Assembly: GCF_030013595.1 (NCBI RefSeq)
Contig: NZ_CP122768.1
From: Escherichia coli
Lineage (GTDB): Bacteria; Pseudomonadota; Gammaproteobacteria; Enterobacterales; Enterobacteriaceae
DNA length: 64,000 nt
Direction: 5' to 3' (one strand)
Shown: positions 39,208 to 57,620 of the stretch, in pieces
Numbering within the stretch: position 1 is the first letter of the stretch
Layout: each line of letters starts with the position of its first letter
Made by a program: the position numbers and the translations under genes
The notes under the pieces: model-generated
Told to the model about the DNA's origin: nothing
What the model saw: only the letters and a program-made list of their open reading frames with translations
Database searches by the model: none

Positions 39208-40422
39208 ATGCTGCTTTCAGACCTTGCCATCAGGCGCGCGAAGCCGAAAGAAAAGGCTTATACACTCAATGACGGTAACGGGCTTTCGTTGCTCATTGAG
39301 CCGAACGGTTCGAAAGGGTGGCGACTGCGCTACAGGTTTGCAGGAAAGCCCAAAATGTTGTCGTTGGGTGTGTACCCTGATGTGTCTCTGTCTGATGCCA
39401 GGGCGGCAAGGGATGAGGCTAAAAGGCTTCTTGCTGGTGGTATAAATCCAAGTGAGGCCAGAAAAGCCCAAAAGCGAGAACAGGCGAGCAAATTTGGCAA
39501 TACTTTTGAGGGTATTGCTCGCGAATGGTACGAAAAGCGGATCGACAGGTGGTCATCGTCATACGCCGAGGAAATGATCGAGACGTTTGAAAAAGATGTT
39601 TTTCCGTACATTGGCGGTAGGCCGATCGCAGAAATTAAGCCGATGGAATTGCTGGCGGTTCTTTCCCGTCTTAATGACCGTGGTGCGACTGAAAAATTGC
39701 GTAAGGTTCGCCAGCGATGCGGCGAGGTGTTCCGGTACGCAATCATCACCGGACGCGCCGAATATAATCCAGCCCCTGACCTGGTGAGCGCATTTGCTCC
39801 ACATAAAAAAGAGCATTACGCCTATTTGAAGGCCGACGAACTGCCGGAATTTTTCCGCGTTTTTAATACGTACACCGGAAGCCAGATCGTCAAACTGGCA
39901 ATGCGGCTATTAATTCTGACAGGTGTCAGACCCGGGGAATTACGGCAGGCAGAATGGCAGGAGATCGATTTTGATAATCGTTTGTGGGAAGTGCCTAAAG
40001 AACGAATGAAGATGCGCCGTCCGCATTGTGTGCCATTACCAGAACAGGCGATAAAAATACTGGAGCAGTTAAAAAACATGACAGGCCAGTATCAGTTTAT
40101 TTTCCCCGGTCGTATTCACCACAGTAAGCCAATGAGTGAAATGGCGATGAATGTGCTCATTCGTCGTATCGGCTATGCCGGGCGCGTTACTGGTCATGGA
40201 TTCCGGCACACCATGAGCACCATTTTGCATGAGCAGGGCTATAACACCGCGTGGATAGAGACGCAGCTCGCACACGTCGATAAAAACTCAATTCGTGGCA
40301 CATACAACCATGCGCAATATCTGGATGGTCGCCGGGAGATGCTCCAGTGGTATGCCGACTATATGGATTCGCTCGAGCATGGCGGTAACGTGGTGCATGG
40401 CAAGTTCGGAAAATGTGGATGA
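39208..40422 (+). CDS. int: Tyrosine recombinase, P4-type integrase
   Basis: N-terminus MLLSDLAIRRAKPKEKAYTLNDGNGLSL...WRLRYRFAGKPK and catalytic-region residues (HGFRHT, LAH...RGTY); start after GGAGC. Confidence 0.9.
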   Translation: MLLSDLAIRRAKPKEKAYTLNDGNGLSLLIEPNGSKGWRLRYRFAGKPKMLSLGVYPDVSLSDARAARDEAKRLLAGGINPSEARKAQKREQASKFGNTFEGIAREWYEKRIDRWSSSYAEEMIETFEKDVFPYIGGRPIAEIKPMELLAVLSRLNDRGATEKLRKVRQRCGEVFRYAIITGRAEYNPAPDLVSAFAPHKKEHYAYLKADELPEFFRVFNTYTGSQIVKLAMRLLILTGVRPGELRQAEWQEIDFDNRLWEVPKERMKMRRPHCVPLPEQAIKILEQLKNMTGQYQFIFPGRIHHSKPMSEMAMNVLIRRIGYAGRVTGHGFRHTMSTILHEQGYNTAWIETQLAHVDKNSIRGTYNHAQYLDGRREMLQWYADYMDSLEHGGNVVHGKFGKCG

Positions 40423-40550
40423 CTGGTTGCGTATACAGTAGTAGACTTTGAGCGACGAAAGAAAAGGCTGTGTCTAGGGTCGCTCCCGAAAATCCGTACA
40501 CCTCGACGGACTGGTACAGCCACTACAGTAGAGGACGCTGAGGTGTGCGT

Positions 40551-41348
40551 ATGATTGATATTCATGCCGAATTAAACGAATACAAAAAAGATTTTATTTC
40601 TTTACGTGAATTTCTTGAGGTCGTGCTTAAGGTCGCTGGTGATGATTATGATGTTTCAGATGTCATAACTTGGATACTCAGGAGAATAAGCGGAGAACAT
40701 ATCCGCCTGTACACAGTAAATGAATTTAAGCTGTTGGAATCTTTTTGTAACCCGTATCGGGATGAATTTGATTATGATGTTCTTTATAGAAATCTGAATG
40801 CGGTTCGGAAACGTGGTTGTTTACCTGGTGAGAGGGATGAAAATGGTTTTCTGGTGTCCGGTTATTGGGAAGATCCCGAATTTGAGAACATTGGATTTAT
40901 AAGGGGTGAAATTTTCGCAATTTTTCCCGATGTCCTTGACGCGTTAACGAAGCTGGAAGGCGCTAACTCTTCTGAAAATGACGAGGCACAAGGACGCGAT
41001 ATTGAAAAGAAAGAGTTGCGTACAGAGGATGATTTATTATCCCAAATCGCAATGCTGGAAAAAGAAAACGCAGAGTTAAGGGCAAGGATAGAGCAGTTAG
41101 AGCAAGAGCGCCCGATACACTTATATAAATACTGGGATAAAGACCCATTAGCTAAGGCTATTGAGATTAGAAACAGAGAGTGGGCCAATTACGATCCAGA
41201 AAATGATTTTGCCACCAGGGGAAATCAAGAAGCGATAACCAGGGAGCTTAAGCAGTGGGGGGCAAGTAATGCACTTGCAACGCTCATAGAGAGGACTGCC
41301 TGCCCTATTAACCGAGACAACAGCCAAAAGAACGCAAAGCCGGATTAA
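40551..41348 (+). CDS. Hypothetical protein, AT-rich orphan cargo gene next to the integrase
   Basis: 265-aa ORF behind a GAGG Shine-Dalgarno; central coiled-coil stretch (LSQIAMLEKENAELRARIEQLEQER); visibly lower GC than int; no motif I recognise. Confidence 0.6.
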   Translation: MIDIHAELNEYKKDFISLREFLEVVLKVAGDDYDVSDVITWILRRISGEHIRLYTVNEFKLLESFCNPYRDEFDYDVLYRNLNAVRKRGCLPGERDENGFLVSGYWEDPEFENIGFIRGEIFAIFPDVLDALTKLEGANSSENDEAQGRDIEKKELRTEDDLLSQIAMLEKENAELRARIEQLEQERPIHLYKYWDKDPLAKAIEIRNREWANYDPENDFATRGNQEAITRELKQWGASNALATLIERTACPINRDNSQKNAKPD

Positions 41349-41363
41349 CGCACCATACCGCAT

Positions 41364-41507
41364 ACCCTGAGGGTGATTTACTGTTACCCTGAGGGTATTT
41401 TTTTATCTTCCCCGTCAATTTTACCATCACCCTTAGGGTAGATTTCCTCCCGATTACCATCACCCTTAGGGTTAATTTCCTTCCGGTAACCATTAGGCCT
41501 GAGGGTA
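41364..41507. repeat. Five copies of the palindromic motif CCCT(G/T)AGGGT, including a ~33-bp tandem direct repeat; putative operator upstream of alpA
   Basis: Copies at about 41364, 41386, 41428, 41461 and 41494; unit TTACCATCACCCTTAGGGT(A/T)(G/A)ATTTCCT occurs twice. Confidence 0.6.
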
Positions 41508-41575
41508 TGAAAATATTCGTTATTTCTGTGCCAGGATTACCTCGTCAAATTGAGTAGACGTTATGAGGTAAATAT

Positions 41576-41773
41576 ATGTCAAATACGCTTATTCGTTTAA
41601 CAGAAGTTCAGCGTAGAACTGGATATAGCAAGGCATGGATTTATCGCCTTATGGGGCAAGGTAAATTTCCTGCATCAGTTAAAATTGGCTCGCGAGCTAT
41701 TGCTTTCGTTGAGAGTGAAATTGACGAGTGGATTAATCAGCGTATTGCGGAATCACGCGGAACAGCTACCTGA
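41576..41773 (+). CDS. alpA: AlpA-family phage transcriptional regulator / excisionase-like
   Basis: 65 aa, MSNTLIRLTEVQRRTGYSKAWIYRLMGQGKFPASVKIGSRAIAFVESEIDEWI, the canonical AlpA HTH. Confidence 0.8.
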   Translation: MSNTLIRLTEVQRRTGYSKAWIYRLMGQGKFPASVKIGSRAIAFVESEIDEWINQRIAESRGTAT

Positions 41774-41850
41774 TTAAATGGCTACGGGGCTATTGCCCCC
41801 AGCTATCCACCAGCAAATAAAAGTAACTTAATTCGATAGCAGGAGTTTTT

Positions 41851-42651
41851 ATGAAATTTCCAAAAACGCCCGTACAGGGGCGGGGCTTCGTTCGGCCTGA
41901 AAACCAGAATCTGCAAAATTTCGGCGAAATTATCCCGGTTATTTCCGGCGTTATTGGCGGGAGTGAAACCACTATTGTTAGCGCCAGAGCGTTACATAAG
42001 GCGTTAGGTGTAGGGCGCGTTTTCCGTTCGTGGATCAAGGGGCGCATTGAAGAATACGGGTTCACGGAAGGCGTGGATTATGAGGTTGTTGAATATTTGA
42101 GCCGACCCGATCCGGTGAGCGCAAAATCTCGCCAGCAAACCGCTCTTGAGTACATCATCACAGTGAACATGGCGAAAGAACTGGCGATGGTCGAGCGCAC
42201 CGAACAGGGCCGCGCCGTTCGTCAGTACTTCATCAAATGCGAGGAGGAGCTACACAAGGTTGCGCCTGTTCGTTCCGCAGCGTTACGCCGGGAACTGAAA
42301 GCCCGTATCACCGTTGCCAGTTACTTTAAGCCGATGTGCGCCGCGCTGGAGGCGTACCGGGCTGAACTGGGTAAAAACACGTTCCAGCACCACTACACCA
42401 CGGAAGCCAATATGCTGGCGCGTATCGTGCTGGGTGGCATGACTGCAAAACAGTGGGCGCAGGCGAACGGCATCACAGGCGAACCACGCGACCACATGAG
42501 CACGTTGCAGCTTGAGCACCTTTCTTACCTTGAGCAGAGCAATATCACGCTGATTGAGTTAGGCCAGGACTACCACCAGCGGAAAGCTGAATTAATTCGT
42601 CTTTCGCAGCGTTGGTTAGCCCGTCGCATGGAGGAAAACAGCCATGTGTAA
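41851..42651 (+). CDS. Phage antirepressor-like protein (AntA N-terminal / KilAC-like C-terminal)
   Basis: ARALHKALGVGRVFRSWIKGRIEEYGFTEGVDY and MAKELAMVERTEQGRAVRQYFIKCEE resemble Ant-type antirepressor domains; AGGAG Shine-Dalgarno. Confidence 0.65.
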   Translation: MKFPKTPVQGRGFVRPENQNLQNFGEIIPVISGVIGGSETTIVSARALHKALGVGRVFRSWIKGRIEEYGFTEGVDYEVVEYLSRPDPVSAKSRQQTALEYIITVNMAKELAMVERTEQGRAVRQYFIKCEEELHKVAPVRSAALRRELKARITVASYFKPMCAALEAYRAELGKNTFQHHYTTEANMLARIVLGGMTAKQWAQANGITGEPRDHMSTLQLEHLSYLEQSNITLIELGQDYHQRKAELIRLSQRWLARRMEENSHV

Positions 42652-43278
42652 CGCTCTGACCGTTACAAAAAGAGAAAGCGCCCCGTTGCCGGAGCGCCTT
42701 TGTGAACGAATAGCCTACTGCGCCATATTGCTTACTGTCTACGAGGCAGATTATAGCGTTGTGGTCGCACAGAGTGAAGGCGCTGATCACCGTTACTACA
42801 GCACGCCAGAAATGCAGAATATTTTGCTGCAAAATGCCGTTGGTCACGCCGTCCGGAAAGCAAAAAATTTTGCTGGTGGCGCGACTGATGCGATTTTGTC
42901 AGGTCGCCAGGTGCTGATCAATCTGATGTCTGATTTCGTTCTGGATAAAACAAAGGCGACCGCAGAGAGCCGCCAGTGGAAAAGCTACATACTTGAACGC
43001 ATCACCAACAATGCCACATTTGCGGCTGGTGGGCAATGTGATCAGTCAGATTTGGTTCGTTCCAAGGTTTGCAACGAGAGCTTTTTCCTGTGCTCTTTAA
43101 GGAATTTCTCAAGAGCAAACGAACAAGGTGCGAATCTTTCTGATTCATGTTCATGCGCTATATTTTTGCGTCGTTTCTTACGAGTTGGTGATGGTGTTTT
43201 GGTTGATTCTGTGTCGCTCATGGTGCTGTCCTGTAAAGCAATGCGCCTGCGTTCCTCAAACTATGGCGCTGATAGTGG

Positions 43279-43584
43279 CTATTCCTGCTCTTTGACCTTG
43301 CGTCGCTGGAGTTCTTCACGCGCGACGGTGACGAGTTGCCCGATCTCCTCGGCTGCTTTGACTCCGATTTTTTCCACCTGCGCCAGTGCATCGAGCGAAG
43401 AAACCAGGGGATTTTCTCCTCTTCCTTCTGCCTGGCGCCGGGCGATCTCCCCGCGCATGGCGGTTACTATGAATCCGGCGTTGCTTTCGCCGTCCAGTTT
43501 TACGGATTCCATGCCTTCAATAACATCATGCGGGATCCGAGCTGTCAGTGATTGTGATTTTGCGTTTTTTGAACCTGTAGCCAT
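43279..43584 (-). CDS. Putative small DNA-binding repressor (ribbon-helix-helix-like), divergent from the replication operon
   Basis: 101 aa from the ATG at 43584 behind GAGAGGA (track ORF extends to a TTG at 43599); faces a palindrome-containing intergenic region. Confidence 0.5.
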   Translation of the reverse strand: MATGSKNAKSQSLTARIPHDVIEGMESVKLDGESNAGFIVTAMRGEIARRQAEGRGENPLVSSLDALAQVEKIGVKAAEEIGQLVTVAREELQRRKVKEQE

Positions 43585-43780
43585 CTGTAATCCTCTCAAT
43601 GAAAGTGTAAGACAATATACACATAAAAAGTCTTACATAAAAGCATTGACATGTAAGCCACCCACAAATAAAGTTACTTACACCTTGTTAATGCAAGGTG
43701 CAGAAACGACGAAACCCGGCAGTGCGCGAACACTAACCGGGCTTCTAACCACCAACGATAGAGAGCTTATCGAGGTAGCT

Positions 43781-43984
43781 ATGTTAAATCATACCACACA
43801 CCCGCAAGGGCGGGACTCGCACAACCTGAATAAATACATCTGGCGTTTTATCGCCCTGAGTACGGCACAACCGCGCGTAATTCACATCGAGGCCACCAGC
43901 GAACAGGAAGCGCGTCAGCAATCTCCTGATGGCTGCGTGATGGTATTCGCTGCCCGTATTCGCCAGGAGGTGCACCATGCATAA
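43781..43984 (+). CDS. Hypothetical small protein (67 aa), first gene of the rightward operon
   Basis: ATG behind GAGGTAG; stop overlaps the start of the next gene; it is the C-terminal segment of track ORF 42644..43984. Confidence 0.4.
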   Translation: MLNHTTHPQGRDSHNLNKYIWRFIALSTAQPRVIHIEATSEQEARQQSPDGCVMVFAARIRQEVHHA

Positions 43985-44342
43985 CCTGTCAATTTCTGAC
44001 CTTAACAGCATTCAGTTTGACGAGAAATTTACCGGGCAGCTACTGGTCCATGTGGAGAACGGGCGCATAGTGCGTAATTACAACCTGCCGGATGGTGCAA
44101 TTGCCGGAAGCGTTGAAGCATTGCTGGAACTGGCAGAACGTGCGCGACTGATTAAGCCGTTAACGAGCCATCACGATGATGATCTGCATTTTACCGGACG
44201 CATGGTGAGTCACTACGAAAACGGTGTCGAGGTATCCCGCGAACGTCTGCGTGATGATTGCTGTTTCGGCACACTGCCGGAATTTATCGAATTGCTGACC
44301 GATTGCGGTTATCAGGTAATTCAGAGCAAGACGCAGGAGTAA
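43977..44342 (+). CDS. Hypothetical protein (121 aa)
   Basis: ORF coupled to the upstream and downstream genes; no recognisable motif. Confidence 0.5.
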   Translation: MHNLSISDLNSIQFDEKFTGQLLVHVENGRIVRNYNLPDGAIAGSVEALLELAERARLIKPLTSHHDDDLHFTGRMVSHYENGVEVSRERLRDDCCFGTLPEFIELLTDCGYQVIQSKTQE

Positions 44343-44348
44343 AAAACC

Positions 44349-44639
44349 ATGAAAAAGAAAAATTCTGGCTTTACTGCCAGCGGCCCCGCTCGGCCTGAAA
44401 TCAGACACGGCGATATTTACCGCGACACCAGACGCGGGGGACGAGTGGTTATTCGTCACGTTACGCCAGGCAATATCACCTACCGCCGCGAGGCTTACGA
44501 ATATGACTGCGTAATGCCGCGCCGTCAGTTTGAGCGTGATTTTATTCTGGTGGAAAACAAACAACAGGCGGTGGCGAGACGTGCAGCCACGAATATTAAA
44601 AAAATCCGGGCAATGTTGGTTGCGGGAGGTAAGAAGTGA
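44349..44639 (+). CDS. Hypothetical protein (96 aa)
   Basis: AGGAG Shine-Dalgarno; stop overlaps the GTG start of the primase gene. Confidence 0.5.
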   Translation: MKKKNSGFTASGPARPEIRHGDIYRDTRRGGRVVIRHVTPGNITYRREAYEYDCVMPRRQFERDFILVENKQQAVARRAATNIKKIRAMLVAGGKK

Positions 44640-46384
44640 AAAACGCACCGAATTTGAAATATCAGCCGAAGGATAAATTCACTGAGGTTATCATTTTTGC
44701 CGGGACGGATGCTTACGCCCATGCCCAACACTGGATTGAAAGCGAAGGACGAAAACATGGCGATAACGTGCCACCCGTTTATCTGGGGCCAAAGCAACTG
44801 GCAGACCTGGCGAATATCCGCATTGTCGACGATGAACGCCGCTTTGCGCGTGTTTATATCGCGGGGGAGATAGAGCCAATCCAGATCAACGCTATCGCTG
44901 AAAAACTGGCGCTGGCTGGCGTACAGGAGGCGAAATTATACAAAGGCATCACCGACCGGGAGCCGGAGAACTGGCGCGATTACCTGCAACGGTTACGCGA
45001 ACAGGCTGAGCGCGGAGAAATTCTGTCAGGAAGGACCGAGAAAAAACACAAAATATCTCTTTCCAGAATGGCGGACAGCCAAAGGGCAAAACTTTTAGCT
45101 GAACGATTTCAGGATGTAGCAATGAATCAGGAGAGTGAGGTTGTCCACGTCTGGCGCGATGATTTTTGGGTTCCGGTAAGCACACTGGATCTTAGTCGTG
45201 AAATGGTGGCTATTTACGAAGAAAACGGAACAGCGTTTAGCCGGAGAGCAATAAGCAATGCAGTGGATGCTTTAAAAGTTATGGCCAGGCCAATGGGGGA
45301 GCCGTCAGGTGATTTATTGCCGTTCGCTAATGGCGTGTTTGACCTGAAAACTGGCGAATTTTCCCCGCACTCGCTGGATAACTGGATCACCACGCATAAC
45401 GGCATTGAGTACACGCCACCAGCACCAGGGGAGAACATCCGCGACAACGCGCCAAACTTTCATAAATGGCTTGATCACGCTGCAGGAAAAGACCCGCGAA
45501 AGATGATGCGTATATGCGCTGCGCTGTACATGATTATGGCTAACCGGTACGACTGGCAAATGTTTATTGAGGCCACAGGAGACGGCGGGAGCGGCAAGAG
45601 CACATTTACGCACATAGCCACCCTTCTGGCAGGGAAACAGAACACGGTAAGCGCCGAAATGACATCGCTTGATGATGCTGGCGGGCGTGCACAGGTTGTC
45701 GGAAGTCGTCTTATTGTCCTGACAGACCAGCCGAAATATACAGGCGAAGGATCGGGAATCAAGAAAATAACTGGCGGCGACCCCGTGGAAATTAACCCGA
45801 AATATGAGAAGCGTTTCACAGCAATTATCAGGGCTGTCGTGCTGGCAACAAACAACGTGCCGATGATATTCACCGAACGGGCCGGAGGCGTTGCACGTCG
45901 ACGTGTAATTTTTCAGTTCGATAATATTGTAAGGGAGGCCGAAAAGGATAAAGAATTACCGCAAAAGATAGCGGCAGAAATACCTGTCATTATTCGTCGA
46001 CTGCTTACTAACTTTTCAGATCCAGAAAAAGCACGAGAATTATTGCTTGATCAGCGTGACGGTGCCGAAGCTCTGAAAATAAAACAGGAAACTGATCCTG
46101 TCATTGGGTTATGTGCGGCGCTTGCATTTCTTGACGAACCGCATGGAATGATGATGGGAGGCGGTAAGAGAACAGTTGACCTTAACCCACGTACAAGTCT
46201 GTACAGGCTTTATCTTGCCTTTATGGAGTACATAGGCAAAGAAGAAAAATTAAGTGTTAATGATTTTGGTAAGGCCATGAAGGCGGCTGCAAGAGAATAT
46301 GGAGCTGAATATCTGACCAGAGGTTTTAAAGGACGAACACAAACTAACGTTATAAGAACGGAGAGAACCGAGGAATTTTTATAA
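44636..46384 (+). CDS. Phage/plasmid primase-helicase (P4-alpha / PICI Pri-Rep type, SF3 P-loop)
   Basis: Walker A GDGGSGKST and Walker B-like LIVLTDQP; GTG start behind GGAGG; iterons immediately downstream. Confidence 0.85.
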   Translation: MKNAPNLKYQPKDKFTEVIIFAGTDAYAHAQHWIESEGRKHGDNVPPVYLGPKQLADLANIRIVDDERRFARVYIAGEIEPIQINAIAEKLALAGVQEAKLYKGITDREPENWRDYLQRLREQAERGEILSGRTEKKHKISLSRMADSQRAKLLAERFQDVAMNQESEVVHVWRDDFWVPVSTLDLSREMVAIYEENGTAFSRRAISNAVDALKVMARPMGEPSGDLLPFANGVFDLKTGEFSPHSLDNWITTHNGIEYTPPAPGENIRDNAPNFHKWLDHAAGKDPRKMMRICAALYMIMANRYDWQMFIEATGDGGSGKSTFTHIATLLAGKQNTVSAEMTSLDDAGGRAQVVGSRLIVLTDQPKYTGEGSGIKKITGGDPVEINPKYEKRFTAIIRAVVLATNNVPMIFTERAGGVARRRVIFQFDNIVREAEKDKELPQKIAAEIPVIIRRLLTNFSDPEKARELLLDQRDGAEALKIKQETDPVIGLCAALAFLDEPHGMMMGGGKRTVDLNPRTSLYRLYLAFMEYIGKEEKLSVNDFGKAMKAAAREYGAEYLTRGFKGRTQTNVIRTERTEEFL

Positions 46385-46401
46385 GAGTAATGCCTGCAAC
46401 A

Positions 46402-46691
46402 GGTAGACGGGTAGATATTGGGTAGATGCTAGTTTTATGGATGCCTACCCGCTGAATCCCTTGCGCCACAAGGGATTCAGCGAAATAGGTAGATAGGGTA
46501 GACAATATCTCGCTTAAAAACTTTTTTACGCAGCGAAAGGAAAATACAGGTTAGAGAATGGAGAGTTAAAAGAAAGTCACTTTTACTATCTACCCTATCT
46601 ACCTAATAGATAAAAGTTGTTTTTTATCATTGTGTTAAGTGGGTAGATAACCGTTTCTTTGTTGTCTACCTGTTATCTACCTTGTCTACCC
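46402..46691. repeat. Putative replication origin: at least 11 copies of the iteron GGGTAGA(T/C) in both orientations, an 11-bp-arm hairpin and an AT-rich stretch
   Basis: Iterons at 46402, 46409, 46420, 46488, 46496, 46588, 46597, 46641, 46664, 46675 and 46684; inverted repeat CTGAATCCCTT/AAGGGATTCAG at 46452-46480. Confidence 0.7.
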
Positions 46692-46760
46692 ATAAGATGA
46701 AAGTACCGGATACGCCGTGAAGGTGCAGGCAGTGAAGCCCTGGTTATCGCATGTACCAAG

Positions 46761-47108
46761 ATGAAGGATGCGGAGGAACTGAAAGAAATGGCTTGCGATT
46801 TGCGCGAGGTTGAGCTTTTCAAGGATGAAGGCGGGGAGTTAATCACGTCGTTGGTGCTGGAGGATAAGCCCCGCCCACCCGTTGAACTGGAGCGCATCGA
46901 GTACGCTGCTAACAAGACAGAGAATCACGACGCGCTATGGGGCTGTATCCGTTCACGCACACAGCGCGGCGATAAATGCACTATCCCGTTGTTGCGCGAT
47001 GACATGAAAAAGCTGGGGTATGAGATGAAACACTTCCGGCGCTGGCTGTACAAGCTGGAAAGCGACGGCGTAATCGCTATTGACGGTGATTATGTGCGCC
47101 CACTGTAA
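46761..47108 (+). CDS. Hypothetical protein (115 aa)
   Basis: ORF only; sits between the origin and the GTGAGGA array. Confidence 0.4.
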   Translation: MKDAEELKEMACDLREVELFKDEGGELITSLVLEDKPRPPVELERIEYAANKTENHDALWGCIRSRTQRGDKCTIPLLRDDMKKLGYEMKHFRRWLYKLESDGVIAIDGDYVRPL

Positions 47109-47495
47109 AAAGTGAGGAGCAAAAGTGAGGATGGCGGGTAATTTAACAAAAAATCAACGCCACTCCTCACTTTCTCACCTGTATATAGGTCAAAAAGTGA
47201 GGAGTTAAAAACACATTGCAAAACAACAGATTACAACAATAAAGAAAACGACTGAGGAGCAGAACAAGAATAATAAAAAGTGAGGAACAAAAGTGAGGAA
47301 TGGTGAGTTAATAGAAATGAGGTAATAAAAATAACAGGTAGGTTAAAAAACACACCATGCAAGATATTAACTAAAACTTAACTATTTACCTCACTTTTGC
47401 GTATATATAAGGATTAAAAAGTGAGTACTTAAAAATACATTTAAAATCATATTGTTATTAACTTCATAAATTTTCACTGTGCAGCAGGTGAGGAA
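47107..47495. repeat. AT-rich non-coding array of at least 8 copies of AAAGTGAGGA (both orientations)
   Basis: Copies at about 47107, 47121, 47161 (inverted), 47193, 47276, 47289, 47388 (inverted), 47417 and 47487; no ORF of 60 aa or more. Confidence 0.6.
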
Positions 47496-47574
47496 TTAAA
47501 AAATCAGGAATGTTAAAAATGAAAACAGAATGTTGTGTCAGTGCCGTTGGGCAACGTAGCAACCAGTAAAAACG

Positions 47575-48117
47575 ATGGGGCAAAGCATGACTAAGCTGAC
47601 CATTAACAGAAAACCGAAAGGCATTTACGGCACGCCGCAGAAAACGACGCAGGCGGCGCAGGAGCAGGATAAAACCACATCGGCGCATAAAGTGATGCCC
47701 GGTAACCAGAAAGCGCAGCAGAAGCCCACAGGGGCGACACCGTGGCGGCATATGACCAAACGCCAGCGCAAAAACCGCAGGCGCGTTAACCGCCTCACTG
47801 AGTTGTGGCCTGAATTATTCAGCCGGGAAGCACCGAAGCCGCTTAAGGTGGGGATATTCGACGACCTGATGCAGGATCTCGCCGTCAGGGGGCTGGCATT
47901 CGGTCCAGGGGCATTGCGTGCGACGCTGGCATCTTATGCGCAGTGTCCGCGCTATTACCGCGCCTTAATGGCTGGTGGGGTACGCTACGACCTGAAAGGC
48001 CAGCCGTGCGGCGAGGTGACACCACAGGAACAACAGGACGCCGAAACGCGGCTGGTGGCGCTGAATGAGAAGCGCAAACGTCAGCGCCGGGCAGCAAAGG
48101 AGAAAACAGGCGCATGA
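47575..48117 (+). CDS. ProQ/FinO-domain RNA-binding protein
   Basis: LTELWPELFSREAPKPLKVGIFDDLMQDL...RATLASYAQCPRYYRALMAGGVRYDLKGQPCGEV parallels the recalled ProQ N-terminal domain (RFPHCF...RPLKIGIFQDL...RVDLDGNPCGE). Confidence 0.7.
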   Translation: MGQSMTKLTINRKPKGIYGTPQKTTQAAQEQDKTTSAHKVMPGNQKAQQKPTGATPWRHMTKRQRKNRRRVNRLTELWPELFSREAPKPLKVGIFDDLMQDLAVRGLAFGPGALRATLASYAQCPRYYRALMAGGVRYDLKGQPCGEVTPQEQQDAETRLVALNEKRKRQRRAAKEKTGA

Positions 48118-48401
48118 TTCACGACAGCAAAGCGGAAGCACTGGAAGCGCGTGGTCTGTACCGGAGAGCGGCGGCGCGGTGGGCTGAGGTCATCATGCTG
48201 GCGAATGATGACAAGGCACGGGAACAGGCGGCAAAACGTCGCGCGGAATGTATCCGCAAGGCAGCACGCCCACCAGCAAGGCAGGATAATTTCGGGGAAA
48301 TGCGCGAAACCATCAGCCGGGCACATGCCGGGATGGGATTACATCAGCCCAATGGTAAGGCATTCAGGAAATACCCTGGATCGAAAAATTGCAGTCAGTG
48401 A
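48114..48401 (+). CDS. PerC-family transcriptional regulator (copy 1)
   Basis: MIHDSKAEALEARGLYRRAAARWAEVIM...RRAECIRKA matches the PerC/Pch family signature as I recall it; ATGA overlap with the ProQ/FinO gene. Confidence 0.7.
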   Translation: MIHDSKAEALEARGLYRRAAARWAEVIMLANDDKAREQAAKRRAECIRKAARPPARQDNFGEMRETISRAHAGMGLHQPNGKAFRKYPGSKNCSQ

Positions 48402-48405
48402 CAGA

Positions 48406-48430
48406 AGCCGGGATTTTTCCCGGCTTTTTT
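48406..48430 (+). terminator. Rho-independent terminator after the PerC-like gene
   Basis: AGCCGGG-attttt-CCCGGCT followed by a T6 run. Confidence 0.75.
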
Positions 48431-48442
48431 GTGCCAGTAAAA

Positions 48443-48477
48443 AGCCCGCAGCCAGAAGTGTTGCGGGCTTTGTTTTT
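48443..48477 (+). terminator. Second tandem rho-independent terminator
   Basis: AGCCCGCA...TGCGGGCT followed by TTGTTTTT. Confidence 0.65.
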
Positions 48478-48596
48478 CAGGTGATTGAAGTCAATGGGAA
48501 GAACGCGATCATCATGCGTTATCGCTTCATAAATTGCAACGATGTAGATCGTTATTTCAGTTTGTGCAATCATAATCATTGTTTTGTTCAGGAGAT

Positions 48597-48776
48597 ATGA
48601 CTATGAGAAAAGCCAGCGTGAAACCCGTTTTACTCGCTCGTGATCAGATTGAAGCATTACAGCGCATCCAGGACGAGGAACGCCGCAATTCTCCGCTGGG
48701 GATTGCTCCGAGCATTCATGAGGTCGCCCGGCGTTTAATGCAGCGGGCGCTTTATCCCGTAGAACGTCCGGCCTGA
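48597..48776 (+). CDS. Hypothetical small protein (59 aa)
   Basis: ATG behind CAGGAG; MTMRKASVKPVLLARDQIEALQRIQDEE... Confidence 0.4.
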   Translation: MTMRKASVKPVLLARDQIEALQRIQDEERRNSPLGIAPSIHEVARRLMQRALYPVERPA

Positions 48777-48815
48777 TGGTCGTGATTTTTTGGTGAAAAA
48801 AGAGAGGTGGTAAAA

Positions 48816-49400
48816 ATGCCAGCAAGCAAAGAAGATTTGCGATTAAAACTGATGGAGGTGGTTAACGCTCTGTCAGAGTCGCAGGGCAGCACTCCGCAGG
48901 AGATTATCGAAATTCTGAATGCGATCCCCGCACAGGATTTCACAAAAGCGGACGAGGATGACGCGAATAAAAACATCGTCGCGTCAGTCGAAGATGAATC
49001 CTCACTGGCAGAAGCCCAGGCTAAAGCGGATTCCGCATACAGCAATATGGGCCGTCGCGCTCCAGCCCCGTTTGCTGGTGAAAAGTCGATGGATTACCGC
49101 AAGCGTGCATTAATTGGTGCACAGAAGCTGGCTAAAAAATTCAGTGATGTGGATATTCGTTCCGTTTCAGATTCTGCAACGCTGGCGGTGCTGGAAGATC
49201 AGATTTACCAGGCTGCAAAAGACAGTGTTCAGTGGGCTGTGGAAAATACGCCGGGCTATTTGCGTAAAACCGTAAGAATGGATGAAGCCGGACGGCGGAT
49301 TACTGAATATCAGGGGGATCCGAATAACTGGCTTAGTGCTTTCAAAATCCCTCCCCGTCGCCTGGTTAAAATTAACGTTGCAAGCCTCGCGGGGGCATGA
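48816..49400 (+). CDS. Hypothetical protein (194 aa)
   Basis: ATG behind GAGGTGG; acidic, with predicted helical regions; no recognisable motif. Confidence 0.5.
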   Translation: MPASKEDLRLKLMEVVNALSESQGSTPQEIIEILNAIPAQDFTKADEDDANKNIVASVEDESSLAEAQAKADSAYSNMGRRAPAPFAGEKSMDYRKRALIGAQKLAKKFSDVDIRSVSDSATLAVLEDQIYQAAKDSVQWAVENTPGYLRKTVRMDEAGRRITEYQGDPNNWLSAFKIPPRRLVKINVASLAGA

Positions 49401-49464
49401 AAAACGTGCTGATTTCAGCCCTGCCGGATTTGGTGGGGCTTATTGCTTATAACCGGGGGACATT

Positions 49465-50118
49465 ATGCTTTTAACAGAAATTGAGGCGGCAAAGCAGATT
49501 CGGGACGGTCAGCTACCGTCGCCTTATCAGTTTTCCAACATGTGGCTGATTAACCTGCGTATCACAGGAACCGGAATGGCCTATCGCGCCGAAGAAAAAG
49601 AATTTGTCTGGCGTTCACCGCAAACTTATCTCAATCCGCAGTTCCTGGAACGTTGCGCCGGAGTACCCGTCATTATCGACCATCCCGAAAGCAAAACCCT
49701 TGAAGACGTGGGCGAACGGTCGCGCATTATTGGCACCGTTATGTTGCCGTATATTCGCGGTGACGAGGTGTGGGGCGTATGCCGGATTTACGGGCAGGAA
49801 ATCATCGATTACATCCAGAAAGCACGGGGGGAGGTATCCACCAGCCCGTCGGTTGTGTTTTGTGGTGCGTCCGGTGGGGCAGAAGTTCCTGATGTAATGG
49901 GCGAGGACAATTTTTTCATTGAGGGTACGCCATTTCTTATCGATCACGTTGCGCTCGTACCGTTGGGCGTATGGGATAAGGGCGGGAAACCATCAGGTGT
50001 GGAAGTAACAACGCCGACAGAAGAAGAACAGCTCGCCGGAATGGTCCGTGAAGTTATTGATGCGGCCTGCAAGCCAGCCCTGGAAAAACTGGAAGAAATA
50101 TCCGGGCGCTGGCTATGA
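49465..50118 (+). CDS. Hypothetical protein (217 aa)
   Basis: ORF behind a GGGGGA Shine-Dalgarno; no recognisable motif. Confidence 0.5.
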   Translation: MLLTEIEAAKQIRDGQLPSPYQFSNMWLINLRITGTGMAYRAEEKEFVWRSPQTYLNPQFLERCAGVPVIIDHPESKTLEDVGERSRIIGTVMLPYIRGDEVWGVCRIYGQEIIDYIQKARGEVSTSPSVVFCGASGGAEVPDVMGEDNFFIEGTPFLIDHVALVPLGVWDKGGKPSGVEVTTPTEEEQLAGMVREVIDAACKPALEKLEEISGRWL

Positions 50119-50288
50119 ATCGTGGGATTGTCCCTGCAGCAGGAAACAATGATCAGAACGTTAAGTTGGAAATTGTTCGGAACGCTGGTGCCGATTACTT
50201 CGCGCAACTAATTGGTGCTCAACGGTTCCTGGGATGATTTAAATACACGCGCTTTCCGGCGCATTAATACAGTCTGAGGGGAAGTGTC

Positions 50289-50813
50289 ATGTTTATGAGC
50301 AAGGCAGAATATGCCAAACACAAAGGCGTAAGCCGCCAGACAGTTTACGACTGGATCGAGAAAGGCGAAGTGGTCATGTCCGGTAAAAAAATCGATGTGG
50401 AAGCGACAGAGCAGCGGAACAGCCCACCAGCACAGGGAAAAGATACCGTTTCTGAAATGTGGCCAGAGAGAACGCTGGAAATGACGTGGGGCGAGTTCTG
50501 GAAAGCAGTTAAGGCCAGAGACGGTAAAATCCCTGCACCAGTAACGGACGATGACATACAGCAGCGTGTGCAGGATGCAGCCGGGGAACTATGCTGTGAA
50601 GTGCAATTTCTTGATGATGGTGCTATCTGCCTTGAGGATTATGCTGGGCAATATTACTTTGAGCAGTATGATTTTCGGGAAAATGCCAGGCTGGCAATTC
50701 GTATGCTGCGTTGTGAGCTCTGCTATGTTGCAGGTGATTGTCCCGATGAGCTGGATAACTGGAGTGAAGCCGGACTAAACGCCCTGGCTGAGTGGGAAAA
50801 ATCATCCCATTAA
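50289..50813 (+). CDS. HTH-domain protein (small-terminase / Rpp-like N-terminus)
   Basis: N-terminus SKAEYAKHKGVSRQTVYDWIEKGEV is a typical HTH as seen in phage small terminase subunits; followed by a repeat array. Confidence 0.5.
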   Translation: MFMSKAEYAKHKGVSRQTVYDWIEKGEVVMSGKKIDVEATEQRNSPPAQGKDTVSEMWPERTLEMTWGEFWKAVKARDGKIPAPVTDDDIQQRVQDAAGELCCEVQFLDDGAICLEDYAGQYYFEQYDFRENARLAIRMLRCELCYVAGDCPDELDNWSEAGLNALAEWEKSSH

Positions 50814-50826
50814 TGACCGTAAAATT

Positions 50827-51110
50827 CGCGAAAAGTGTCAAGTCAGGCCGTCTGCCGGGTTGACACTTTACACTCTGAACGCGAAAAAGTGTCAACCTCG
50901 CTGTAAGCCCCGCCATTACTGGCCTTTCGCCAGATTTACCACGTCAAAAAGCCGAAAAAATCGCGAAAAGTGTCAAGTTGCCATGCTTAGAAATGCTAAG
51001 GTTTGATAAGGTTTTTCGCGAAAAAGTGTCAAGTGTGTCAACCTGCGATGTTAAGATTTGTTAAGGTCTTAAGCCGGAAAGTGTCAACCAGCCCCTAAGA
51101 TTTCCTAAGG
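50827..51110. repeat. Array of at least 6 copies of CGCGAAAAGTGTCAA plus three TAAG(A/G)TTT doublets
   Basis: Copies at about 50827, 50861 (inverted), 50880, 50960, 51016 and 51078; non-coding. Confidence 0.6.
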
Positions 51111-51118
51111 TGTAAATC

Positions 51119-51409
51119 ATGACCATCACCGAAGCCGATATGCTGGAGATGATCCGCAGCATTGCCGGAATCAGACCACCAGCAGGCAAACAGGAGGCCA
51201 CGCAGCCGGACAGCGTTATCGCTGAGAACTATGCGCGTGTGGTGGCTGAGGTGATGCGCCGTGACGGTATTGAGCTTAACGGAGTGGATATGCGCGACAT
51301 ACGCACCAGGGTACTCGAGTTATTGGCCTACCGTCGCCGCGTGCAGATGTACCGGGAGAGCGAGAAAAAGACTTACCAGTGGAAGAAGCCGGAGCGGTTA
51401 CGGCGGTAA
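51119..51409 (+). CDS. Hypothetical protein (96 aa)
   Basis: ORF behind an AAGGTG Shine-Dalgarno. Confidence 0.45.
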   Translation: MTITEADMLEMIRSIAGIRPPAGKQEATQPDSVIAENYARVVAEVMRRDGIELNGVDMRDIRTRVLELLAYRRRVQMYRESEKKTYQWKKPERLRR

Positions 51410-51459
51410 CCAGTTGATAAAAAGGCTCCTCAATTTTGAGGAGGGTAGCTGGTGGCTGG

Positions 51460-51481
51460 CAGAATGTAAATTTACATTCTG
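51460..51481. terminator. Perfect 22-bp palindrome between convergent genes (bidirectional terminator or protein site)
   Basis: CAGAATGTAAATTTACATTCTG, preceded by a second hairpin CTCCTCA-attt-TGAGGAG at 51426-51443. Confidence 0.5.
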
Positions 51482-51511
51482 GTGATTTAATCATCTGATT
51501 TACCCGATGGC

Positions 51512-51802
51512 TTACCTTACCAGGCCATAGCGGATTACCGTGCAATGCGCACCATCGCCACCAATACGCACATCAAAACGTGGCTCACGGACTTTCACAC
51601 GCTCCAGCAACTTATCACGAACCATAGCGTTTAGCGTCCTTCGTGTTGCCTCTATGTGATATCGCTGATATTCGGAACCATAGAGCAGCACTGTAACACC
51701 ACGAACATCAAAAGGTGGATCTCCAGCCTCCACCCGCACCCAATCGCGATACTCAGGTTTGTAGAGTTCAAGGATCTGTTTTTTGTGCCTGGTCATTCTC
51801 AT
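51512..51802 (-). CDS. Hypothetical protein (96 aa)
   Basis: Minus-strand ORF with a protein-like composition; palindromic operator upstream. Confidence 0.45.
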   Translation of the reverse strand: MRMTRHKKQILELYKPEYRDWVRVEAGDPPFDVRGVTVLLYGSEYQRYHIEATRRTLNAMVRDKLLERVKVREPRFDVRIGGDGAHCTVIRYGLVR

Positions 51803-51916
51803 GCGTGCAACTCCTTATTGTGGGACAGTACTGTCATACAATAAGCTATACGGAAAATTATCAAAAGAACAGAAACCAACCATTCAGATTTAACAGGTAT
51901 CAATGGGATTATGCTT

Positions 51917-52219
51917 ATGGTGCATGATGACAAAGCGGAAGAACTGGAAGCGAAAGGCTTATGGCGACGGGCGGCTAATCGCTGGGGTGAGTTACTGAAA
52001 CAGGCGGCAAGTGATGAAGCGCGTCAGTATGTAACGGAACGACGAACGGCATGCATCCGGAAGGCAACCATAACCCGGGAACCGGAAAGAGACCTGATTT
52101 GTGCCATAAGAACCGCCGCCACAAAAACACTAACGGATATGGGGATCGACCTGAAAAAAGAAGATCCACTGCGGGGCATTCAGCACGGACATACAAAGCA
52201 GGATAAACGCAGGAAGTAA
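51917..52219 (+). CDS. PerC-family transcriptional regulator (copy 2)
   Basis: MVHDDKAEELEAKGLWRRAANRWGELL...RRTACIRKA parallels copy 1 at 48114 (clear paralogue); alternative ATG at 51911. Confidence 0.7.
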   Translation: MVHDDKAEELEAKGLWRRAANRWGELLKQAASDEARQYVTERRTACIRKATITREPERDLICAIRTAATKTLTDMGIDLKKEDPLRGIQHGHTKQDKRRK

Positions 52220-53082
52220 ATTTTTTCGTGTAACCAGGCAACCGACTATCTGAAAGATAGTCACACCCTACCGGGATCACGCTAGTAACGCACAACAGAG
52301 TGACCCATAGCCACCCTGTTTAACCGTTCCGGCTGGCTGGGCAGATTTTGCGCGGGTCTTATAGTCCCTCACAACAGAGTAAATAAAATTGACTTGGTTA
52401 CAGAGTAACCAAACCGGAGATTCCCGGTTTGCTCAAAAAATGACAATGAGTTACGCCCCTAACCTAAGTAATCCTTACATTCACTGCATCATCACCATGA
52501 TGGTGACGCAGCCCACCAGCAACCATAACGATTTCCGTTACAGTTGATGTGCTTTTTTGCTGGTAAGGCGTAACCCGTTGATTGTTCCAGAATCCACCAT
52601 CGGTGGAAGTTGAAAAACTCACCCGCCAGATTCTGAATGGTGAAAATCACCGGGGATCTGAATAGGCATTTCCTCTATGGAGGTCGCACCGTTTTCGGGA
52701 GAAGGTGCGATCATGTTCGTCATACCTGTTCCGTTGAAACGGAATACCCCATTCCGGCGTAGCTGGTGGACGCACAGCCACATACGAAAAATTGCATTCA
52801 GGAGGGGGGATCGAAATCCCTACCCCCCATTGCTTATGGGACCGCCCGCCCCGTCAAATTTTTACACCCGCGAAATTAAAAAAATGCGTCGCGCTGGTGG
52901 GCCTGATGCCGATATGGGGATTCCCATAACGGGTTATCCATGATCATCCACCAGCTTGATAACGGATAACAGGGGATGCGAAATCCTCAAGCGAGTGATA
53001 AACGTGTATAGAAATGTGTATAGAATCTATTTTAGAACTCGAGAATGTGCCTTTATTACTGGTCTTGTTGCTTGTTGTATTG

Positions 53083-53101
53083 TTCCCTTCGCCCGCTCCA
53101 A
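53083..53101. repeat. attR: 19-bp direct repeat of the tRNA-Gly 3' end at the right island junction
   Basis: TTCCCTTCGCCCGCTCCAA is identical to 39026-39044. Confidence 0.85.
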
Positions 53102-55233: not shown

Positions 55234-56139
55234 CTATATTTCCAGACATCTGTTATCACTTAACCCATTACAGGCCCGCTGCCGCAGATATTCCCGTGGC
55301 GAGCGATAACCCAGCGCACTATGCGGATGCCATTCGTTATAATGCTCGAACGCCTCTGCAAGGTTCTTTGCTGCCGTTAACCCGTCTGGTTTGGGCATGA
55401 TACTGATGTAGTCACGCTTTATCGTTTTCACGAAGCTCTCTGCTATTCCGTTACTCTCCGGACTCCGCACCGCCGTGTTCTTCGGTTCAAGTCCCAACAT
55501 CCGGGCGAACTGGCGTGTTTCATTAGCCCGGTAGCATGAACCATTATCCGTCAGCCACTCCACTGGAGACGACGGAAGATCGTTGCCGAAGCGGCGTTCC
55601 ACCGCTCCCAGCATGACGTCCTGTACTGTTTCACTGTTGAAGCCGCCGGTAGTCACCGCCCAGTGCAGTGCCTCACGATCACAGCAGTCCAGCGCGAACG
55701 TGACACGCAGTCTCTCTCCGTTATCACAGCAGAACTCGAACCCGTCAGAGCACCATCGCTGATTGCTTTCTTTCACGGCCACTCTGCCTGTATGTGCCCG
55801 TTTCGATGGCGGTACAGCAGGTTTTCGCTCAAGCAACAGCGCATTCTGGCGCATGATCCGGTAAACACGTTTGGCATTGATCGCAGGCATACCATCAAGT
55901 TCTGCCTGTCTGCGAAGCAGCGCCCATACCCGACGATAACCATACGTGGGCAGCTCTCCGATAACATGGTGTATACGGAGAAGCACATCCGTATCATCAG
56001 TGTGACGACTGCGGCGGCCATCCATCCAGTCATCGGTTCGTCTGAGAATGACGTGCAACTGCGCACGCGACACCCGGAGACAACGGCTGACTAAGCTTAC
56101 TCCCCATCCCCGGGCAATAAGGGCGCGTGCGCTATCCAC
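55234..56139 (-). CDS. insD: IS2 transposase OrfB (DDE integrase core)
   Basis: 301-aa ORF matching IS2 InsD as recalled. Confidence 0.9.
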
Positions 56140-56462
56140 TTTTTTGCCCGTCCATATTCAACGGCTTCTTTGAGGAGTTCATTTTCCATCGTTTTCTTGC
56201 CGAGCAGGCGCTGGAGTTCTTTAATCTGCTTCATGGCGGCAGCAAGTTCAGAGGCAGGAACAACCTGTTCTCCGGCGGCGACAGCAGTAAGACTTCCTTC
56301 CTGGTATTGCTTACGCCAGAGAAATAACTGGCTGGCTGCTACACCATGTTGCCGGGCAACGAGGGAGACCGTCATCCCCGGTTCAAAGCTCTGCTGAACA
56401 ATTGCGATCTTTTCCTGTGTGGTACGCCGTCTGCGTTTCTCCGGCCCTAAGACATCAATCAT
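56097..56462 (-). CDS. insC: IS2 transposase OrfA
   Basis: [52 protein letters not shown]...; HTH; overlaps insD for -1 frameshift fusion. Confidence 0.9.
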
Positions 56463-56870
56463 CTGTTCTCCAATGACTAGTCTAAAAACTAGTATTAAGA
56501 CTATCACTTATTTAAGTGATACTGGTTGTCTGGAGATTCAGGGGGCCAGTCTAAATAGAATCGAAAAAGAGAATAAAATATATGCAGGGAGTAACAAAAC
56601 ACTCGCAGTGCGTTAATGTGTAACTAACAAATATGATTTTTATTGAAAATAGTCACCAAATAAGTGTTATAAGAAATACGGGGTATGTTTAAGTAAAACA
56701 TATCAACAGTTGCAATTCTGTATATGGACAGGATGACTTACTACTGTAAGTGGCTGATAGCTATTCGCTCATAACAAAATCATTATTTTATAAATAGGAA
56801 TCATCACTTTTTAATCATGTTTTTATTGCAAGTTTATGGAGAATGAGAATATGGAATAAGGAGATGAAAC

Positions 56871-57620
56871 ATGATTGAAGAAGGGCTGTTACTTCCAATG
56901 AATGTTTTGCTTCAAGGACAGAAGTTAACCCTACTGGATCCTGAAATGTGGTTCTTACGGGGAAATGAAAACAAGGATGTAACCCTTGTTATTACGATTG
57001 GTAATAACCACCAAAAATTAATGGTAGTGGAAGACATATTACTGCTCATTGACCGAAGCCAAATTGAGGTAACTGCAGGGAAAGTAATTTATCATCCACT
57101 TCGCATTGATATCCTGAGTAAATTATTAGCTTTTATAGATGAATCAACGGGGAGTGTGGAAAGGGAACACCATGAGTTGTTTGCTGATGCCTTGCCCTTT
57201 GCATCAGAAGTTGTGCTATTCAGTAAAGTTGCAAGTGAAGCCTGGTTTTTAGCCACTTATCTGAGCAGCGATAATATTAATGCAATTCTGTTTCAGCATC
57301 TAAGAAAAACAGAATGCTATAAACTGGTTCGCTATTTATTATCGCAATCGCTCATACAGACTTCACTCTATGATCTTGGTGAGCTTTACGGCGTATCGTA
57401 TTCACATTTTCGCCGTTTATGTAGTTATGCATTGGGTGGTAAAGTTAAAACGGAATTATGTGGCTGGAGAGTTGCCAGAGCAGTGTTGGAAATCATTGAA
57501 GGAAACAGTGATATGACAACTATTGCGCATAAATATGGCTACTCATCCTCATCACACTTTTCAGCCGAAGTAAAAAGCCGGTTAGGAAAAACACCGAGAG
57601 AACTATGTAAAAAGTTATGA
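56871..57620 (+). CDS. eivF: AraC-family T3SS transcriptional regulator (InvF-like)
   Basis: C-terminal AraC HTH (YGYSSSSHFSAEVKSRLGKTPRE); AAGGAG Shine-Dalgarno; first gene of the inv-like operon. Confidence 0.8.
   Translation: MIEEGLLLPMNVLLQGQKLTLLDPEMWFLRGNENKDVTLVITIGNNHQKLMVVEDILLLIDRSQIEVTAGKVIYHPLRIDILSKLLAFIDESTGSVEREHHELFADALPFASEVVLFSKVASEAWFLATYLSSDNINAILFQHLRKTECYKLVRYLLSQSLIQTSLYDLGELYGVSYSHFRRLCSYALGGKVKTELCGWRVARAVLEIIEGNSDMTTIAHKYGYSSSSHFSAEVKSRLGKTPRELCKKL

Follow-up and report, generated by a model that had tools for sequence, protein, structure and literature searches.

Two diverged PerC/Pch-family genes on a glyU-inserted Escherichia coli island with the anatomy of a phage-inducible chromosomal island

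The 64,000-nucleotide stretch of Escherichia coli contig NZ_CP122768.1 that was analysed here (the window) carries two open reading frames (ORFs) of the PerC/Pch family, termed PerC1 and PerC2, a few kilobases from the ETT2 type III secretion cluster. A preliminary description had presented them as paralogues on an island next to a type III secretion system (T3SS) locus, and had considered cross-talk with that system plausible. Both genes are located on one island that has integrated precisely at the 3′ end of the tRNA gene glyU. Judged by its gene content and order, this island is one of the phage-inducible chromosomal islands (PICIs) of Gram-negative bacteria and resembles EcCICFT073 and EcCIEDL933 in kind.

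Two PerC genes on one island at glyU

PerC1 (95 amino acids, aa) and PerC2 (100 aa) are both found in the ORF listing of the window, and they are the only PerC ORFs recovered by a six-frame profile scan of the complete 64 kb. The earliest ATG of the PerC2 ORF is at 51911, and the start at 51917 (MVHD...) is favoured by the family alignment and by the RefSeq annotation of identical genes. The proteins are 46% identical across 78 aa (BLASTP, E=1e-20). Both give significant and near full-length matches to Pfam PF06069 (PerC), covering model positions 1-89 and 1-82 of 90, respectively, so that the family assignment, initially made from the sequence alone, is upheld by profile search. The N-terminal core on which it was based (D.KAE.LEA.GL.RRAA.RW ... 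RR..CIRKA) occurs in both ORFs and corresponds to nearly invariant columns of the family. Alignments of 11 and 53 PerC sequences were prepared that include PerC from enteropathogenic E. coli (EPEC), PchA and PchE. Both ORFs share with these proteins the signature columns A7, L10, E11, G14, R17, R18, A19, A20, R22, W23 and C46 as well as M74 and G75 near the C-terminus, and their sizes fit the family range of about 85-105 aa. Both PerC1 and PerC2 belong to the PerC/Pch family, in which they have diverged from each other.

The similarity between the copies is unevenly distributed, with 58% identity for residues 1-50 vs 12% for residues 51-90, and they belong to separate clades in a neighbour-joining tree. 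A recent duplication is ruled out by the tree and by the low C-terminal identity. The term "paralogues" is thus appropriate insofar as both belong to the same family, but they are not recent duplicates, which is also evident from a closely related island in strain cq9 that is devoid of the PerC2 cassette (see below). They are old family members which have been joined by module exchange rather than being duplicated within the island.

The left boundary of the island is defined by glyU, the sole tRNA gene in the window, which ends with the attachment (att) core TTCCCTTCGCCCGCTCCAA. Even with three mismatches allowed, the window contains no more than two copies of this 19-mer, while 0.01 occurrences are expected by chance. 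The two copies are 14,057 bp apart and delimit a region of 14.06 kb (39045-53101). Upon joining the sequence to the left of attL with that to the right of attR, an 800-bp empty site was reconstructed which consists of actS/ygeR, glyU and a GH15 gene. Of 5426 complete E. coli genomes, 3392 contain this site uninterrupted, with up to 99.9% identity, and 39045-53101 is therefore a precise insertion. The island that had been proposed could thus be narrowed down to a single element with perfect terminal repeats. Its G+C content is about 45-52%, compared to 36-43% in ETT2. The annotated features are collected in Table 1.

Table 1. Features of the glyU island and its surroundings (window coordinates).
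Feature	Position	Strand	Evidence
tRNA-Gly(CCC), glyU, integration target	38970-39043	+	ARAGORN; Rfam tRNA, 71.6 bits
attL core TTCCCTTCGCCCGCTCCAA, 3′ end of glyU (last 19 bases)	39026-39044	.	perfect 19-bp direct repeat
Tyrosine integrase, P4-type, Arm-DNA-binding N-terminus	39169-40422	+	phrog_1 integrase, E=7.8e-80
int-alpA RNA motif (Rfam RF02996)	40467-40534	+	45.5 bits vs gathering score 35.8, E=9.3e-7
267-aa ORF separating int from alpA (accessory position, left end)	40545-41348	+	no PHROG, NCBIfam or PADLOC match
Four perfect ACCCTNAGGGT palindromes 5′ of alpA, candidate operator array	41364-41473	.	motif scan
AlpA-type excisionase/regulator	41576-41773	+	phrog_2790 and phrog_66, E~1.5e-11
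AntA/AntB-type antirepressor	41851-42651	+	phrog_5817, E=8.7e-42; RefSeq name in cq9
YlcI/YnfO-family ORF	43279-43599	-	phrog_6522, E=6.9e-58; RefSeq name
Icd-like cell-division-inhibitor ORF	43781-43984	+	RefSeq annotation of 99%-identical cq9 island
RgdR homologue (DUF4222)	44349-44639	+	49% identical to RgdR (Sakai ECs1581), E=2e-25
DNA primase, P4 alpha-like replication protein	44636-46384	+	phrog_864 DNA primase, E=1.3e-143
Iterons (AAAAAGTGAGGAGCAAAA x3), putative origin of the island	47106-47299	.	repeat families D1 and D4
FinO/ProQ-domain ORF (RNA-chaperone type)	47575-48117	+	NCBIfam FinO E=9.6e-18, ProQ E=1.4e-15, both below cutoff
PerC1, backbone PerC/Pch copy	48114-48401	+	Pfam PF06069, E=2.4e-32
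Tandem pair of intrinsic-terminator hairpins at the end of the ProQ-PerC1 unit	48404-48477	+	second: terminator scan; both: sequence reading
Downstream packaging/interference-type module	48603-51409	+	PHROG matches and repeats
Four CGCGAAAA(A)GTGTCAAG 17-bp repeats, 54-81 bp apart	50817-51032	.	repeat families D3 and D12
96-aa ORF divergent from PerC2, candidate regulator	51512-51802	-	constant PerC2 neighbour
32-bp palindrome in 114-bp divergent intergenic region, candidate operator	51814-51845	.	16-nt arms, 88% complementary, no spacer
PerC2, accessory-cassette PerC copy	51917-52219	+	Pfam PF06069, E=5.7e-23
attR core, identical to attL	53083-53101	.	perfect 19-bp direct repeat; empty-site reconstruction
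eivF, 249-aa AraC-type helix-turn-helix (HTH) protein, first gene of ETT2 eiv operon, outside island	56871-57620	+	ORFs; RefSeq annotation of syntenic ETEC4068 region

Island anatomy and the setting of each PerC gene

The assignment to the PICIs follows the anatomy and criteria of Fillol-Salom et al. 2018 (PMC6092414). A terminal integrase gene, a specific att site and flanking repeats are present, and the size is within the range of about 12-15 kb. In addition, alpA is located downstream of int, the primase gene is followed by iterons, and transcription is largely unidirectional, only the YlcI/YnfO-family ORF and the 96-aa ORF divergent from PerC2 being encoded on the minus strand. None of the island ORFs matched PHROG families for capsid, portal, tail or lysis proteins, the only matches of a related type being a weak protease-like one for the DUF2213 ORF and one to the N-terminal HTH of the small terminase subunit (see below). 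No significant PADLOC match to a defence system was obtained among them.

Within this framework, PerC1 is a backbone gene, being encoded after the primase gene and the iterons and before the packaging-type module. The stop codon of the preceding FinO/ProQ-domain ORF overlaps the PerC1 start codon (ATGA), an arrangement of translational coupling, and PerC1 has the ribosome-binding site AAGGAG. No promoter is claimed, as a scan for the sigma-70 consensus returned 4 sites vs 8.6 in shuffled sequences. This ProQ-PerC1 unit was found in 159 of the 5426 genomes (at least 80% coverage), always on the chromosome. A role of FinO-domain proteins in phage satellites was not found described in the literature. 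PerB, which is encoded in EPEC perABC, was considered as a relative of the FinO/ProQ ORF and rejected because the proteins are not similar (BLASTP E=0.085); the perBC pair is thus not a copy of the ProQ-PerC1 pair.

The same setting is recurrent in IMG/VR, where we inspected the best 80 PerC1-like loci. As the related islands were picked via PerC in these surveys, the counts carry a PerC-based ascertainment bias. PICI markers in the order int-alpA-icd-RgdR-primase-(ProQ)-PerC are present in 76 of the 80 loci, Icd in 72, the ProQ-PerC pair in 50, and 60 of the loci are on contigs of at most 20 kb. A second PerC at the right end, preceded by a 96-aa ORF of the divergent type, is found in six.

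PerC2 has a different context. It is adjoined by the divergent 96-aa ORF in every occurrence examined, and the pair was found in 46 of the 5426 genomes, always complete, 90-99.9% conserved and chromosomal, so that it is rarer than the ProQ-PerC1 unit. The two genes form a separately mobile cassette in the right-end accessory region. The 96-aa protein has only 17 close homologues and no Pfam, PHROG, NCBIfam or PADLOC match; its AlphaFold2 model (pLDDT 47) is unusable, so that a winged-helix fold would be a guess. The intergenic region contains a palindrome which, in the 90.7% identical cassette of strain CFIAFB20180511 (positions 12294-12325 of locus L015), has its core changed from GACAGTACTGTC to GATAGTACTATC. 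This is a symmetric double substitution, a single case, by which the dyad is kept. PerC2 is probably an accessory regulator which would be held off by the neighbouring 96-aa protein via the palindrome.

Several other regions of the island deserve comment. Of the nine strand-wise matches to ACCCTNAGGGT in the window, eight are within about 110 bp upstream of alpA, while 0.18 are expected window-wide, and this array may be a candidate operator for whatever keeps alpA off. A degenerate fifth palindrome of this type is found near 41497. The 267-aa ORF upstream of the array has no PHROG, NCBIfam or PADLOC match. The DUF4222 ORF is located directly 5′ of the primase gene, as is RgdR in strain Sakai, and has HGD in place of the RGD motif. 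RgdR (ECs1581, OI-51) regulates the enterocyte effacement locus (LEE) as well as motility and activates LEE1, and residue 20 of this motif has been shown to be important (PMC3378721). Counting this homologue, the number of small regulators on the island for which there are T3SS precedents rises from two to three.

The placement of iterons behind pri-rep agrees with the origin layout described for PICIs (PMC6092414). The 115-aa ORF beside the iterons (46761-47108) aligns with nothing but the C-terminal end of phrog_2850. In cq9 its annotation is that of a RepA-family helicase truncated at the N-terminus, and it looks like the remnant of a swapped replication module. The module downstream of PerC1 consists of a 57-aa ORF, a 197-aa ORF, a DUF2213 ORF (49465-50118) with weak protease-like similarity (E=5.7e-5), a Nu1-like HTH ORF (50289-50813) and a further 96-aa ORF (51119-51409), with matches to phrog_6216, phrog_530 (weak), phrog_57 (N-terminus of the small terminase subunit) and phrog_1561. 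The CGCGAAAA(A)GTGTCAAG repeats directly follow the 174-aa ORF that has the HTH-like N-terminus of Nu1-type small terminases. Together, repeats and ORF resemble a binding array of the cosB/pac type, as would be used in redirecting packaging.

The region of about 860 bp between PerC2 and attR (52220-53082) has no convincing ORF and no Rfam match. A part of it (52571-52968) is 96.5% conserved in the cq9 island, which is without the PerC2 cassette, and the region may serve as an att arm or cos site, or encode an RNA. A circular record of 12,152 bp from a chicken E. coli (NZ_CP148430.1) was submitted as a "plasmid" that is non-mobilizable. Its genes (Ant, DUF4222, Icd, TOPRIM/DUF927 primase, PerC, integrase) are those of a PICI resembling EcCIMP1, and it is probably an excised satellite circle.

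The ETT2 neighbourhood and proposed roles of the PerC proteins

The ETT2 eiv genes begin 4.65 kb past PerC2, and the description of the island as being next to a T3SS locus is correct in this sense. The eivF gene is followed by sctC/eivG, eivE, eivA and eivC, while attR, the GH15 gene, a GhoT/OrtT-like ORF and a copy of IS2 are located between PerC2 and eivF. Neither PerC gene is part of the ETT2 cluster, as both are enclosed by the att repeats. The IS2 copy (about 55234-56507, with the InsC/InsD ORFs on the minus strand) has inserted into the intergenic stretch of about 350 bp between the GhoT/OrtT-like ORF and eivF, so that eivF may have lost the connection to its original upstream region. 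In strain ETEC4068, another copy of IS2 interrupts sctC/eivG instead.

Related islands are found at unrelated positions. In strain cq9, an island that is 99.2% identical over 41866-51190 has integrated between abgR and smrA and has a different integrase; it has 397 bp in place of the 1380 bp which here contain the PerC2 cassette. Islands with both ProQ-PerC1 and the 96-aa/PerC2 pair occur at tRNA-Pro (proL)/yejO in strains SA53-3, CFIAFB20180511 and others, and at abgR/smrA in RM9088. The two-PerC architecture was also encountered beside a gene cluster of the phosphomethylpyrimidine-kinase type. The two-PerC islands at tRNA-Pro/yejO and abgR/smrA carry different replication and packaging modules, and there are also islands with PerC2 only. 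Conversely, the glyU site of ETEC4068 is occupied by a different integrase-bearing element, and none of the 5426 genomes contains the exact mosaic described here with a coverage of at least 80%. As the same islands occur elsewhere and glyU is the att site, the adjacency to ETT2 is incidental and provides no evidence of a functional link; it looks as if ETT2 just happens to flank the other side of a tRNA hot spot. The suggestion that proximity hints at function could thus not be sustained, the more so as the site is empty in the majority of genomes and IS2 intervenes.

How PerC1 and PerC2 might act was approached from their structure and remote similarities. An AlphaFold2 model of PerC1, based on the 53-sequence alignment (pLDDT 81), has helices at residues 5-13, 16-29, 33-50 and 61-73. 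A Foldseek search of this model against the PDB gave nothing at E<1, only short and non-significant TPR-like superpositions and no HTH-type match, and no solved structure is sequence-related to the PerC alignment even at E<=10. We infer that both are small all-helical proteins without a recognisable DNA-binding fold. The NCBIfam model for the ANR family (NF033650) is the sole match for 10 of 11 full-length PerC proteins and for 8 of 10 short PerC1 relatives, and ranks second among four weak matches for PchA. The register is the same throughout, including all 11 full-length proteins, with the N-terminal three-helix core (residues ~5-52) aligned to model positions 7-54 of 54. The scores range from 13.6 bits for PchA through 14.4 for PerC1 and 19 for PerC2 to 31.1 bits (E=1.6e-7) for EcCIMP1_025, whereas ANR membership is defined by at least 32 bits and a size below 10 kDa. 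The in-register alignments would therefore indicate remote homology and not ANR membership.

Published work on both families points to H-NS. PchA activates LEE1 only under silencing by H-NS/StpA/Hha, and displaces H-NS there (PMC4764244). Aar, the ANR archetype, binds H-NS (PMC5570504), and ANR proteins repress AraC-type activators (PMC4038620). Because of the analogy with PchA, which relieves H-NS silencing, and with Aar, which binds H-NS and AraC-type activators, the most likely mode of action of PerC1 and PerC2 would be through protein-protein contacts by which silencing complexes of the H-NS type or partner regulators are modulated. Action as classical DNA-binding activators would be less likely. 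PerC1 probably serves the programme of the island itself, namely expression of the downstream module after induction. We consider the chances to be somewhat better than even that this explanation holds as a whole, with two diverged PerC genes on a PICI at glyU, an incidental ETT2 neighbour, a protein-protein mode of action, PerC1 as part of the backbone and PerC2 as accessory gene.

Several observations weigh against parts of it. The ANR scores of PerC1 and PerC2 are below the curated cutoff, and Pch has been described as DNA-binding by Fukui et al., using chromatin immunoprecipitation and in vitro reconstitution, so that direct contact with DNA is conceivable. The life-cycle role of PerC1 has been deduced from position only, while some related islands have no gene where PerC1 would be expected, and the single PerC of EcCIMP1 is located at the right end. 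For the 96-aa ORF, the regulator role is based on the gene arrangement, one palindrome and one pair of symmetric substitutions.

PerC1 might also be purely a life-cycle gene of the satellite without any host targets, serving, for example, as a late activator or anti-silencer of the packaging/interference operon, with PerC2 as a spare or immunity-type variant. The position of PerC between the replication and downstream modules is indeed fixed in most PerC loci of PICI size, PerC1 is co-transcribed with the FinO/ProQ ORF in a terminator-bounded unit, and PHROG relatives are among the "transcriptional activator" families. Carriers from many sources include commensal as well as pathogenic strains, which also fits. 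However, the master regulator that has been described for Gram-negative PICIs is AlpA rather than PerC (PMC6092414), at least one PICI-borne PerC affects a host promoter (PMC11773190), and there are islands in which the position of PerC1 holds no gene. As experimental support was not found in the literature either, we regard a satellite-only role as possible but somewhat unlikely.

That PerC1, PerC2 or both are virulence regulators which cross-talk with a T3SS, via the ETT2 eivF operon or ler-type (LEE1) promoters, is improbable in our view. The idea has precedents in the family, since EPEC PerC and PchA/B/C activate LEE1 and the PICI-borne EcCIMP1_025 represses it (PMC11773190, PMC4764244), and RgdR, which activates LEE1, has its homologue on this island (PMC3378721). 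EivF is of the AraC type and the PerC core is ANR-like, and the low G+C content of ETT2 is as expected for H-NS-bound DNA, where Pch acts. However, the published PICI-borne PerC homologues are inactive on LEE1 or repress it: in PMC11773190, which cites Porter 2005, PchE and the CFT073 homologue are reported to have no effect on LEE1. The identity of PerC1 or PerC2 to experimentally tested members does not exceed 51% overall and is 12-38% in the C-terminal half. The tRNA att site accounts for the adjacency to ETT2, the same islands and cassettes are found at unrelated loci, and most genomes have the empty site; in addition, IS2 separates the island side from eivF, and a link between PerC and ETT2 was not found in the literature.

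A more far-reaching scenario, which we consider quite doubtful, is that PerC/Pch proteins are C-terminally extended ANR relatives which serve as backbone regulators of satellites. PerC1 would then counter-silence the late module, and a derepressed 96-aa/PerC2 switch would re-tune host H-NS and AraC regulons, possibly including EivF. If true, this would tie satellite induction to the expression of host virulence genes.

Tandem satellite arrays are common at tRNA sites, and the stretch without a convincing ORF after PerC2 might be taken to mark PerC2 as belonging to a second, decayed tandem island or as a non-functional remnant, but this is hardly credible, since there is a single integrase and no internal att copy even at three mismatches, the cassette is intact and conserved as a pair in 46 of 46 carrier genomes, and it holds the same right-end position in single islands elsewhere.

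We thus return to the explanation based on a PICI at glyU. What appeared to be a pair of virulence regulators beside a secretion system is, in this explanation, part of the cargo and of the backbone of a phage satellite that is mobile. As the pair rides on such a satellite, its proximity to ETT2 should not be read as regulatory linkage. The backbone position of PerC1, the ANR-register similarity and the repressor-like PerC2 cassette may be useful to the fields of PICI biology and of EPEC and enterohaemorrhagic E. coli (EHEC) regulation. In the literature surveyed, effects of PerC proteins have been tested with host LEE reporters only.

Comparison with known systems

PerC homologues on E. coli PICIs have already been published (PMC6092414, PMC3378721, PMC11773190), and allelic PerC variants have been noted as accessory genes of Gram-negative PICIs (PMC6092414). 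No description was found in the literature of two PerC genes as a recurrent configuration, of the palindrome-containing 96-aa/PerC2 cassette or of the coupling between ProQ and PerC1; these are variations within a known kind. With EcCICFT073-type PICIs, the island shares the order int-alpA-(icd)-RgdR-primase-iterons-packaging/interference, a size of about 14 kb, a tRNA att site, and the lack of structural and lysis genes.

ANR proteins, as represented by Aar, are like PerC in that they are small and helical, are linked to H-NS (PMC4764244, PMC5570504) and are regulators in which no DNA-binding motif is known. They differ from PerC proteins, which have 90-105 aa with an extra conserved C-terminal helix and the MG motif, by a size below 10 kDa. 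Moreover, ANR proteins are anti-activators while PerC/Pch are activators.

Among characterised PerC proteins, the closest relative of PerC1 is PchE (51% identity), followed by EcCIMP1_025 (46%), EPEC PerC (41-44%) and PchA (43%). PerC2 is only 29-43% identical to these proteins (EcCIMP1_025, 40%; EPEC PerC/Pch, 29-32%). EPEC PerC, encoded in perABC of pMAR2, and EHEC PchA/B/C have in common with the copies described here the PF06069 domain, the conserved core, the C-terminal MG motif and their location on mobile elements. These proven LEE1 activators and H-NS anti-silencers (PMC4764244) differ in being plasmid- or lambdoid-prophage-borne rather than PICI-borne.

EcCIMP1_025, from PICI EcCIMP1 of E. 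coli MP1, resembles PerC2 in being PICI-borne and located in the right-end accessory region, but is without the divergent 96-aa partner. It represses a LEE1-lux reporter, as tested in C. rodentium, and the authors of this work suspected that it is related to ANR (PMC11773190).

PchE (ECs1588) has been described on OI-51 of O157:H7 (PMC3378721), also referred to as Sp7 or EcCIEDL933. Like PerC1, it has about 90 aa and is encoded on an island with a P4-type integrase. In Sakai Sp7, pchE follows RgdR, primase and SSB and precedes the capsid and packaging genes, which is the position of PerC1. Sp7 differs from the island described here in being capsid-forming (major head, portal, terminase) and in its att site, and it has neither the FinO/ProQ partner nor a second PerC.

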